DNA of 64,000 nt from Clostridia bacterium (lineage in GTDB: Bacteria; Bacillota; Clostridia; Monoglobales; Firm-18), in NCBI GenBank assembly GCA_045660545.1, contig JAZREA010000021.1, forward strand, positions 86,503 through 150,502. Reading direction: 5' to 3'. Under the pieces are notes generated by a model. The model saw only the letters and a list, made by a program, of their open reading frames with translations. It was not told the origin of the DNA and ran no database searches. Below, in pieces: positions 9,499 through 56,471 of this stretch (position 1 is its first letter; each line of letters begins with the position of its first letter). Both the position numbers and the translations under genes were made by a program.

Positions 9499-9645
9499 AA
9501 ATCGACAAGATTCGATAAGAGTCTTGTCGATTTTACTTTTCACCTATTCACTCTTCACTATTCACTAAGATTGAACTTGTCGATTTGAAGTAATAAGTAA
9601 TATGTAACAGTGAAGAAGTGAGGTGCAAAATCGCAAGCGATTTTG
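9499..9645 (+). repeat. tRNA-trailer repeat, copy after tRNA-Pro
   Basis: Colinear along its length with the reverse complement of 56248-56396, which follows tRNA-Arg. Confidence 0.85.
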
Positions 9646-9738
9646 TTTTAGATTTATATTATATAGTTTAAAAATCAAATTAAGAAACCCTTGCTATTAC
9701 TACATTTACAAGTAAATCCTATAAGAACACTCGCACCA

Positions 9739-9772
9739 AAAAACAACTGATACTTTTGTATCGGTTGTTTTT
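9739..9772. terminator. Intrinsic terminator-like hairpin
   Basis: AAAAACAACTGATAC-tttt-GTATCGGTTGTTTTT followed by a T run. Confidence 0.7.
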
Positions 9773-9906
9773 TTATTTTTAAAAGGGATAACAGGATTTG
9801 AAGCTTAAGAAGGCACAAGACATTTAGGTACATATACAAATTGCTCCATAACTACGATATCATCACGGCATAATGGTTATACTACTAAAAGACTGGAGTG
9901 ATTATT

Positions 9907-12116: not shown

Positions 12117-12154
12117 AAAAACGCATATTTTAATCCGCGTAGATAAAAATTTAT

Positions 12155-12190
12155 AAAAAAAAGACTATTCTTACGAATAGTCTTTTTTTT
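12155..12190. terminator. Bidirectional terminator between the SDR gene and the tRNA cluster
   Basis: AAAAAAAAGACTATTC-ttac-GAATAGTCTTTTTTTT. Confidence 0.85.
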
Positions 12191-44014: not shown

Positions 44015-44029
44015 AACGTGCACCCCCAA

Positions 44030-44147
44030 AAATAAAAGTGTGGACAGCCAAAGCTATCCACACACAAATACAAATAAAATTTAAGATTGTGTAACCTAAA
44101 ATGCTAAGCGCGCAAATAGGTGAGAAATTGGATAACTTCTGCTTGCC
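44030..44147 (-). promoter_or_regulatory. L20 leader attenuator
   Basis: AAGCAGAAG...TTCTCACCT motif, then terminator GTGTGGATAGC/GCTGTCCACAC with U-tract. TTGACA-17-TAACCT promoter at 44181-44153. Confidence 0.8.
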
Positions 44148-44291
44148 ATAATAGGTTAACACACGAATAAGCTTTTGTCAAGGGTTTTTAATAAAAAATT
44201 TTTCACTTTTATTGACAACTTATATCGCGATTGATTTTAGCCTTAAAGTATGTTAGAATATTTAACACAAGCTTTTTAGGAGGTGGCCGGT

Positions 44292-46326: not shown

Positions 46327-46369
46327 AAAAGAAACGACAACTTTCTTAGGAAAGTTGTCGTTTCTTTTT
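46327..46369 (+). terminator. Terminator after tRNA-Cys
   Basis: AAAAGAAACGACAACTTTC-ttag-GAAAGTTGTCGTTTCTTTT. Confidence 0.85.
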
Positions 46370-46585
46370 GTGTTCTTATCTATTAACTATTCTTTCTTCA
46401 CTTTTCACTAAAATTTTTTTAGATTCCAACCGACAATTGTCAATAAAGCCAATTGATTTTCCGATATACTTAATAGTATAATTGTCTTGCATACGATATG
46501 TGAAATTTTGTTGCACAAAACCTGCTCCCGACTGAGCAGGGCATAGGGTTTAGATAATGAACATATAGCGAAAAGGAGATTAAAT

Positions 46586-56203: not shown

Positions 56204-56247
56204 AACACAGTATAACATACGCACAAATAAATTGCAATAAAAAAATA

Positions 56248-56396
56248 AGCTTTGCTTTCGCAAAGCTACCTTAACCTATTTCTTATTCACTATTACCTAT
56301 TACTTCCAAAAAATCGACATGTGTTTTTAGGGAATAGTGAAGGGTGAATAGTTAATAAGTAAAATCGACAAGATTCTATCGAACCTTGTCGATTTT
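56248..56396 (-). repeat. tRNA-trailer repeat, copy after tRNA-Arg
   Basis: Homologous to 9499-9645. Starts immediately after the tRNA CCA and ends in a GC-GAAA-GC hairpin with U-tract. Confidence 0.85.
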
Positions 56397-56471
56397 TGGC
56401 ACCCCCGACCGGAATCGAACCGATGACTAACCCTTAGGAGGGGCTTGTAATATCCTCTTTACTACAGGGGC
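56397..56471 (-). tRNA. tRNA-Arg(CCT)
   Basis: AGCCC-CT-CCT-AA-GGGTT anticodon arm, GGTTCGATTCC T-loop, GCCA. Promoter TTGACA-17-TAAAAT at 56532-56504. Confidence 0.94.

Follow-up and report, generated by a model that had tools for sequence, protein, structure and literature searches.

What occupies the roughly 150 nucleotides that directly follow the CCA end of a tRNA-Pro gene, and, on the opposite strand, that of a tRNA-Arg gene, in the genome of a Clostridia bacterium (assembly GCA_045660545.1)? Both trailers lie within a stretch of 64,000 nucleotides of contig JAZREA010000021.1 (C21:86503-150502, hereafter the window), which holds ten tRNA genes according to ARAGORN and belongs to a genome of 1.55 Mb in 26 contigs (42.6% G+C, 96.5% complete). 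An original prediction, made from the letters of the window, had read the first of them (9499-9645) as either a non-autonomous element targeting tRNA 3' ends or a conserved pre-tRNA trailer RNA. Our analysis suggests, with a probability of about 65%, that this element is the non-coding frame of a small and apparently mobile cassette, akin to the intervening sequences (IVSs) of 23S rRNA genes, that sits between the CCA of the last tRNA of a unit and the terminator of that unit, in the same orientation. In its full form, the cassette follows the tRNA CCA and consists of a hairpin H1, a heptamer array B, a central motif A'', a second array B', in parentheses a hairpin H3, a gene for a protein of the 23S_rRNA_IVP family (IVP), and a module S that itself ends in CCA, after which comes the terminator. 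The two window copies are shells devoid of an open reading frame (ORF), the gene having been lost or never present.

Both window copies begin at the first base past the tRNA CCA and show the same order of parts, with each tRNA directly followed by H1 (AAAATCGACAAG..CTTGTCGATTTT), the pyrimidine heptamers of B, the central (C)TTGTCGATTT motif A'', the complementary purine heptamers of B', and the terminator hairpin H3. All these features had been named beforehand, and each of them was found in its place and correct in every detail. The statement that the reverse complement of 56248-56396, on the Arg side, has the same order with high identity was equally borne out: the two trailers share 83% identity along some 105 nt, and H3 is unlike in sequence between them with its pairing kept. 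The tRNAs themselves, which had been called unrelated, align merely as tRNAs generally do. The parts of the two copies and their surroundings are as follows.

9352-9379, plus strand: promoter of tRNA-Pro(CGG), consensus TTGACA-16-TATAAT (promoter scan).
9422-9498, plus strand: tRNA-Pro(CGG), a stand-alone gene and the docking site of copy 1 (ARAGORN; Rfam tRNA, 69.3 bits).
9498-9534, plus strand: H1 of copy 1, a hairpin of 15-16 bp that begins at the A of CCA and has a U-run after it, with 5' arm A AAAATCGACAAGATTC, loop gataa and 3' arm A' GAGTCTTGTCGATTTT; intrinsic-terminator-like by sequence, fold and terminator scan.
9535-9575, plus strand: B of copy 1, four pyrimidine-rich tandem heptamers TTCACCT ATTCACT CTTCACT ATTCACT (sequence, alignment).
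9576-9586, plus strand: A'' of copy 1, CTTGTCGATTT, which repeats the H1 3' arm and hence is complementary to the H1 5' arm.
9587-9624, plus strand: B' of copy 1, purine-rich heptamers GTAATAA GTAATAT .. AGTGAAG AAGTGAG, complementary to B.
9625-9649, plus strand: H3 of copy 1, a predicted intrinsic terminator GCAAAATCGC-AAG-GCGATTTTGT with a T-run, on the tRNA strand only (terminator scan).
9684-9738, plus strand: right-end module of copy 1 (S2 type), GAAACCCTTG..GTAAATCCTATAAGAACACTCGCACCA, ending in CGCACCA.
9738-9783, plus strand: plain A-run/hairpin/T-run terminator AAAAAACAACTGATAC-TTTT-GTATCGGTTGTTTTTT (terminator scan, 16 pairs).
56532-56504, minus strand: promoter of tRNA-Arg(CCT) (promoter scan).
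56397-56471, minus strand: tRNA-Arg(CCT), a stand-alone gene and the docking site of copy 2 (ARAGORN, Rfam).
56361-56396, minus strand: H1 of copy 2, AAAATCGACAAGGTTC-GATA-GAATCTTGTCGATTTT.
56329-56360, minus strand: B of copy 2, heptamers ACTTATT AACTATT CACCCTT CACTATT CCCT.
56308-56319, minus strand: A'' of copy 2, TGTCGATTTTTT.
56268-56307, minus strand: B' of copy 2, heptamers GGAAGTA ATAGGTA ATAGTGA ATAAGAA ATAGGTT AAGGT.
56239-56267, minus strand: H3 of copy 2, a predicted terminator AGCTTTGC-GAAA-GCAAAGCT with a T-run, of a second H3 type (terminator scan).

No ORF was found in either copy. The folding energies of the two copies stand far from those of their shuffles (z = -6.4 and -7.7; 0/200 shuffles as good), and scanning called three terminators, namely H1 and H3 of copy 1 and H3 of copy 2, against 0.3 expected; judging from their letters, all three are putative intrinsic terminators, each with a G+C hairpin and a U-run on the transcribed strand. 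As for the extent of copy 1, the left edge first proposed stands, but the right edge was set slightly short, since it left out the S2 module and the terminator at 9738-9783, which, by analogy with the empty and occupied sites described below, is presumably the original terminator of tRNA-Pro, displaced behind the cassette. The S2 module of this copy recurs after the copy on contig C16 of the same genome (blastn, 80% over 59 nt) and after a type II copy in another genus (locus L260 of genome G080; here and below, G and L labels denote genomes and loci of our comparison set, and types I to IV and numbered clades its element types and IVP clades, respectively).

H1 is under selection at the RNA level, on the tRNA strand. 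Compensatory changes were found at 5 of its 14 pairs among 16 copies, and the non-Watson-Crick positions of 100 copies comprise 110 G·T or T·G against 6 A·C or C·A, although these counts do not represent independent events, as the copies are mutually related. Only selection on the hairpin as RNA, in the tRNA sense, would be expected to give so extreme an asymmetry. H3 varies in sequence with its pairing kept, and its U-run lies on the tRNA strand only. A'', in turn, changes together with H1: we found at least ten H1 sequence types, each with its own matching A'' (examples are AAAATCGACAAG, AAGAAACGACAAT, AAAAATCCTCGTTC, AAAAATCCGTACAC, AAGCCCCAAGGAC and GAAATCCTTCATGC), and, out of 11 positions, arm A fits the central motif of its own element at 10-10.8 and those of other types at 6.2-8.5. 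When the A:A'' helix was counted in the alignment of 16 copies, 89.9% of it was paired and both partners had changed in five pairs; none of 500 shuffles was as good, and slid controls were far lower. Over the first 14 positions, A:A' shows 92% Watson-Crick and 7% G·U pairs, and A:A'' 83% and 3.5%, respectively; the local hairpin is therefore intact throughout, and the long-range match comes down to a core of some 11 bp. Two other explanations for A'' were discarded. It is not a target-site duplication of the local terminator, as B', H3, IVP and S are conserved beyond it and one H1 type is found at many tRNAs per genome; nor is it the -35 box of an internal promoter, as the candidate TTGTCG-17-AGTAAT scores only 8/12, is absent from types III and IV, and was not called by the promoter scan.

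The two heptamer arrays are complementary to each other, and their words covary between subfamilies, with TTCACT opposite AGTGAA, TTCTCT opposite AGAGAA (with CTCTTATCT/AGATAAGAG), and TTCATT opposite AATGAA. Minimum free energy (MFE) folds pair B with B', in which ungapped helices average 17 matches out of 20. A solo array, a run of TTCACT/TTCTCT heptamers (CTCTTCACTCTTTTCTCTTTTCACTTTTCTCTATTCACTCTTCACTTTTCTCTCTTCA) that has no H1 and is not near any tRNA, was also seen at C8:23325-23369 on the minus strand, adjoining an apparent gene start.

The position of the element was evaluated using a covariance model trained on 16 aligned copies, on a set of 134 distinct full-length copies, 131 of which have enough upstream sequence for ARAGORN. 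CCA is present at the 5' junction in 130/134, and a tRNA called by ARAGORN ends within 6 nt of the element start in 93/131, nearly always at distance 0. A genome-wide scan of this kind had in fact been proposed as a check, on the understanding that copies mostly away from tRNA genes, or identity with a known insertion sequence (IS) or miniature inverted-repeat transposable element (MITE) end, would speak against the proposal; the copies proved to be tRNA-adjacent, and no IS or MITE identity was found. The copies for which no tRNA was called follow either tRNA-like 3' ends missed by ARAGORN or module S. In total, 27 tRNA species are used, the element always lies after the last gene of the unit, and its orientation is that of the tRNA in all copies. 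tRNA-Cys is occupied across many genera (23/93). The four anticodons used by full copies in the genome studied here (CGG, CUG, CCU and CCG) invited the idea that only C34 anticodons are targeted, which was rejected because relatives use Met, Lys(UUU), Cys, Tyr, Asn and others. All copies lie behind a tRNA-CCA or S-CCA, and among the loci examined none lies in an rRNA gene, neither at helix 25 nor at helix 45 of 23S rRNA.

Within its own genome the element is present in five full copies and two or three diverged or partial ones, every one behind a CCA. The full copies follow tRNA-Pro(CGG), tRNA-Arg(CCT), tRNA-Gln(CUG) and tRNA-Arg(CCG), with the fifth on contig C16 behind a degenerate tRNA-Pro 3' piece, where the alignment extends 16 nt into a remnant of the T-arm and acceptor; the diverged or partial copies lie behind tRNA-Gly(GCC) and tRNA-Cys. 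Of 151 genomes of the order, 82 have the element according to the covariance model, some with as many as 21 copies. A wider sample of 399 genomes from the class gave 75 carriers, belonging to at least 18 families, and many hits there scored nearly as well as the training copies. In Rfam 15 there is no family for it: within the window only the tRNAs and an L20 leader passed gathering, and in E-value mode, on both kinds of locus, the best scores of the element were at most 21.5 bits, compared to gathering scores of at least 52. Among 50,697 records of phages and 72,556 of plasmids, blastn in distant mode likewise returned nothing similar to the element. With regard to the C16 copy, the segment C16:2428-2567 combines a consensus-like promoter, TTGAAA..TATACT, with about 90 nt that end in the degenerate tRNA-Pro 3' piece (..AACAGTCCTGTTACCTGCACCA) fused to the full element, and thus, to judge by these motifs, appears to be a tRNA-less transcription unit of the element. 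About 30 nt past the terminator of the same copy, at C16:2749-2795 (L043:1681-1727), is a match to the Rfam DUF3800-XI RNA (32.0 bits, just below the gathering score of 37.8).

The association with a protein comes from the copy behind tRNA-Gln, as the only 23S_rRNA_IVP gene of the genome (C2:100242-100583, 114 aa) starts 20 nt past it. Its product matches PF05635 (80.2 bits) and TIGR02436, 'four helix bundle protein' (96.5 bits), with 2RLD as the nearest solved structure; a PADLOC search gave no match. Taking the protein as the starting point, the element lies directly upstream of IVP in 77 of 80 loci from 80 species (proteins 72-95% identical), and the remaining three are cut by contig ends or partly missing. 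The gap between element and gene in the 77 loci is 9-108 nt, with the exception of two loci at 241-261 nt, and in 56 of them an ARAGORN tRNA, of 12 amino-acid types overall, ends at the element start. These related IVP loci come from metagenome-assembled genomes of gut and rumen Clostridia (Oscillospiraceae, Acutalibacteraceae, Ca. Aphodoplasma, Fumia and Ructibacterium). Taking the element as the starting point, an IVP-type gene follows 9 of the 78 copies found by the covariance model. No transposase gene was found in full cassettes, where IVP is the sole cargo. In the literature on IVP, TIGR02436 and S23p, we found no description of tRNA-linked IVP cassettes. Consequently to the above, both halves of the first proposal hold in part. 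A non-autonomous element targeting tRNA 3' ends is supported by the CCA junctions and by the many gene-less copies, and is an incomplete description; a conserved trailer RNA agrees with the RNA-level selection and the same-strand terminator. The two are sides of one thing, and what had been missed altogether is that the element is linked to the IVP gene, that a module S forms the right end, and that A'' covaries with H1.

Two more IVP clades in the order show the same layout, each clade having an element type of its own and, between H3 and the gene, a putative promoter. The promoter-like sites of these clades, II and V, read TTGAAT-17-TATACT and TTGAAA..GATATAAT (L231-L238, L242-L246, L256). 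Clade I, which includes the genome studied here, has no promoter-like site between H3 and the gene, and the clades therefore seem to differ in how the IVP gene is expressed. Remoter IVP paralogues vary further, having arrays swapped, arrays bracketing the gene, or a fixed word alternating with mini-hairpins. This second repeat type consists of a fixed word of 6-8 nt (e.g. GTTATAT, TGAATTG, AAATCC or ATGATGT) alternating with unique GC mini-hairpins, and is seen downstream of cassettes or around distant IVP genes (L153, L166, L181, L199, L211, L228, L257-L259, L262, L264 and L271). It often begins directly past the terminator hairpin of a tRNA or S-CCA, and other IVP paralogues are preceded or enclosed by it in L271 and L257-L259.

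The right end of the cassette is marked by module S, a conserved 25 nt (GCATCTAAACCATTCGGCTCTTCCA and variants) ending in CCA that, in most of the closest IVP loci, lies within a few bases of the IVP stop codon. Past S-CCA comes either another element copy or a locus-specific A-run/hairpin/T-run terminator. The comparison of occupied and empty tRNA loci, also suggested at the outset, was possible in one genus where tRNA-Pro(UGG) has a plain terminator in some genomes and a truncated or full element in others. In the empty site of G089, the CCA of tRNA-Pro(UGG) is directly followed by GAAAAAAGCACTTC-ttcg-GAAGTGCTTTTTTCAA, and in the occupied site of G083, the tRNA CCA is followed by the element, IVP and S-CCA, and only then by GAAAAAAGCACTTC-gtaa-GAAGTGCTTTTTTCAA. 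A second such pair is G085 and L166, with the terminator GAAAAAAGACATCC..GGATGTCTTTTTTT. As the same terminator directly follows either the tRNA-CCA or the S-CCA, the segment from H1 to S-CCA behaves as an insert between CCA and terminator. CCA(R)AAA is found at both cassette junctions, and could be a duplication, a recombination core, or merely the shared CCA plus the A-run of the terminator. At the tRNA-Pro(CGG) site of the window, the relatives have an unrelated terminator and flank, so that the boundaries are unreadable there. Copies are more alike within than between genomes (76% vs 69% identity; 0/1000 permutations as high), with some pairs at 93-99%, and tandem arrays of the element are found in L049, L094, L151 and others. 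Taken together, the likeness within genomes, the varying occupancy in one genus, the tandems, and the near-consensus copies in many families agree better with past or present mobility and horizontal transfer than with a host trailer inherited vertically. We infer that the cassette is, or formerly was, mobile and aimed at the junction of CCA and A-run; the CCA of S would recreate the target, which would explain the tandem arrays.

Two further sites in the window relate to this picture.

46327-46413, plus strand: partial diverged copy of type II, behind tRNA-Cys, the last gene of the Asp-Val-Phe-Gly-Cys unit.
12153-12189, minus strand: unoccupied site, where tRNA-Val, the last of the Met-Glu-Val unit, is directly followed by a plain A-run/hairpin/T-run terminator AAAAAAAGACTATTC-GTAA-GAATAGTCTTTTTTTT.

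The tRNA-Cys copy has H1 (AAAAAGAAACGACAACTTTC-TTAG-GAAAGTTGTCGTTTCTTTTT) and a B array, is without A'' or B', and was matched by the covariance model at C21:132832-132897 (35.8 bits); it is a truncated shell from another subfamily of the element. The terminator stem of the unoccupied site recurs in a hairpin behind S in another species (L164), and tRNA terminators such as this one may form a shared modular family. Just past the presumed native terminator of tRNA-Pro, at 9785-9802, the reverse complement GCTTCAAATCCTGTTATCCC is a 17/18 match to the 3' part of the T-arm and acceptor of tRNA-Pro. This inverted piece has the T variant of the relatives' tRNA-Pro (cctgttatcccgacca), and may be the remnant of a second tRNA-Pro or of an old attachment (att) site. 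The L20 ribosomal protein leader on the minus strand at 44026-44150 (Rfam RF00558, 63.9 bits) is an ordinary feature, in keeping with an organism of the Firmicutes.

Several of our observations weigh against a mobile cassette as described above, or against parts of it. No recombinase, transposase or reverse transcriptase was seen linked to the cassette, the upstream flanks are non-syntenic in the empty and occupied pairs, and the shared terminator, which sometimes precedes another repeat family, may itself be modular. The occupancy of tRNA-Cys in many genera would also fit long vertical retention, and, since most copies are without a gene, the shell itself may serve some function for the host. 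At the RNA level, H1 does not match A'' in a few chimeric copies (L031, L074, L095 and L110). The original prediction that the heptamer arms could fold as a long imperfect hairpin agrees with their complementarity and with the MFE pairing, but B:B' has no single conserved register, as the MFE registers vary among copies and RNAalifold predicts H1 only. The mismatches between the arrays, moreover, lack wobble bias (23 G·T vs 44 A·C) and are mainly transversions. With neither a common register nor a wobble bias, we therefore do not claim a defined H2 helix, and the arrays may be protein-binding words instead of a selected helix. Finally, co-transcription, processing and read-through of the element are inferred from its sequence.

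If the cassette were not mobile, the element could be a host-owned and vertically inherited tRNA trailer module, in which a conserved terminator is combined with a small RNA, similar to those released from the 3' external transcribed spacer (3'ETS) of tRNA precursors, for tRNA maturation or regulation, and IVP would be merely a frequent neighbour. The RNA-level selection on H1, the presence of two same-strand terminators in H1 and H3, the invariable position behind the last tRNA of the unit, the retention at tRNA-Cys in many genera, and the preponderance of gene-less copies would all be in line with such a module. We nonetheless consider it unlikely, as a host module would not be expected to leave the same tRNA occupied, empty, or bearing another type among genomes of one genus, nor to occur in tandem and behind the non-tRNA module S, nor to reach 21 copies in a genome, some of them 99% identical. 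Near-identical sequences in at least 18 families of the class, where neutral intergenic DNA would be saturated, and the linkage of an IVP clade to the element in 77/80 loci argue in the same direction, as does the presence of the element in only about half of the genomes of the order.

A mobile element of a more conventional kind is also conceivable. A classical MITE, derived by deletion from an IS or transposon and mobilised by a transposase that acts on terminal inverted repeats and favours sites behind tRNA genes, would account for a multicopy and non-coding sequence of about 150-250 bp, for the short direct repeats CCA(R)AAA at both junctions, and for the likeness of copies within a genome. 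However, the ends are not inverted repeats (left AAAATCGACAAG, right ..CTCTTCCA), all copies are co-oriented with the tRNA, and the asymmetry between G·U and A·C denotes selection on one transcribed strand; given also that phage and plasmid records gave no match and that full cassettes carry IVP and no transposase, we deem this explanation very unlikely. Alternatively, because tRNA 3' ends are classic integrase targets, the copies could be leftover att-site arms of integrative elements, with the heptamers as arm-type sites of a tyrosine integrase that targets those ends, and both the degenerate tRNA-Pro 3' piece ahead of the C16 copy and the inverted tRNA-Pro 3' end at 9785-9802 of the window could be taken as traces of such events. 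The element, however, starts after the tRNA and not inside it, the same sequence lies behind 27 tRNA species, no integrase gene is adjacent in the loci examined, where the neighbours are ordinary genes, and S and the terminator close the unit off within 150-700 bp, all of which makes this origin extremely unlikely.

The mobile, tRNA-docked cassette that we favour is closest to the 23S rRNA IVSs with an S23p/23S_rRNA_IVP ORF known from Coxiella burnetii and Leptospira, which are likewise small, selfish-looking inserts in a stable-RNA transcription unit (PMC4990558). Both have a PF05635 ORF as sole cargo (here in the full form only), a long self-complementary RNA, and an ORF prone to decay or loss. 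Unlike an IVS, the element lies behind the mature tRNA 3' end and not inside an rRNA helix, and therefore nothing needs to be excised for the host RNA to work; its heptamer arrays, furthermore, are both upstream of the gene instead of bracketing it. The A/A'/A'' motif, the internal terminator H3, and the CCA-ended right module are not described for IVSs in that paper (PMC4990558). The element is thus best filed as a new placement among IVS/IVP cassettes, a variant docked at the tRNA 3' end. In diversity-generating retroelements, the protein Avd acts with a structured RNA that adjoins the avd gene. The IVP family resembles Avd (PMC10053308), and the cassette protein belongs to this Avd-like PF05635 family; the genome, in contrast, is without reverse transcriptase (RVT_1 had no match in an assembly that is 96.5% complete, and controls matched), and there are no template or variable repeats and no target gene, so that a diversity-generating retroelement was rejected.

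Two other systems share part of the layout. 3'ETS-leuZ of E. coli is a small RNA freed from the trailer of a tRNA precursor, single-locus and host-specific. The element occupies the same position, between the last tRNA of an operon and the operon terminator, as a structured RNA directly behind that tRNA and ended by that terminator, but differs in being multicopy, common to many tRNAs and families, and gene-linked. Type III toxin-antitoxin systems such as ToxIN comprise an RNA-making repeat array, a terminator and a small protein gene, with the RNA in excess over the protein. The cassette has this order of array, terminator and small gene; its protein, however, belongs to PF05635, is not ToxN/AbiQ-like and has no PADLOC match, and its repeats are of 7 nt in two inverted arrays, as opposed to direct 36-nt units. 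We therefore did not retain a type III system as an explanation.

How such a cassette might work can be outlined as follows. It would be transcribed from the tRNA promoter, and H1 would restore a terminator directly behind the tRNA. Being a perfect duplex of 15-16 bp, H1 might in addition be a site of double-strand processing at which the tRNA 3' end is released, in analogy to the IVS of Coxiella burnetii (helix 45), which is excised from its precursor by RNase III (PMC4990558); by the same analogy, both H1 and B:B' are candidate RNase III substrates. RNA that passes H1 would hold B, A'' and B' and stop at H3, which would attenuate read-through, with a smaller fraction reaching the IVP gene. 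If B pairs with B', A'' would be left in the loop between them and could vie with A' for the 5' arm A, giving an RNA with two states. The IVP protein, in turn, might bind the heptamer arrays, which would explain why the heptamer words are clade-specific. A bolder version of this outline, which we put forward tentatively and regard as doubtful, is that element and IVP form a self-contained ribonucleoprotein mobile unit of an undescribed kind, where an Avd-like, probably pentameric protein reads the 7-nt words, H1 and A:A'' act as a pseudoknot switch, and S mimics a tRNA 3' end, allowing exact copying or pasting behind CCA with no transposase, integrase or reverse transcriptase of its own.

To our knowledge, few bacterial proteins of unknown function are commoner than the 23S_rRNA_IVP proteins, which are known only as passengers in intervening sequences of rRNA genes and, in the case of Avd, as accessory proteins of diversity-generating retroelements. 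With the cassette proposed here, one IVP clade would gain a defined and testable partner, namely an RNA of about 130 nt in which a three-way pairing motif covaries and two heptamer arrays lie in inverted orientation. It would also gain a defined location at the CCA end of tRNA genes, and natural variants to compare number in the hundreds. The cassette would also account for a class of conserved tRNA trailers, left unannotated by pipelines, in Clostridia of the gut and rumen, and would indicate that tRNA operon ends, as rRNA helices do, serve as landing sites of tiny cassettes. If the reading as a ribonucleoprotein unit were true, the classical rRNA intervening sequences and the numerous ORF-less heptamer hairpins of bacteria would be other faces of one system. 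Should the targeting be as precise as the junctions suggest, a route with no recognisable recombinase would be new biology.

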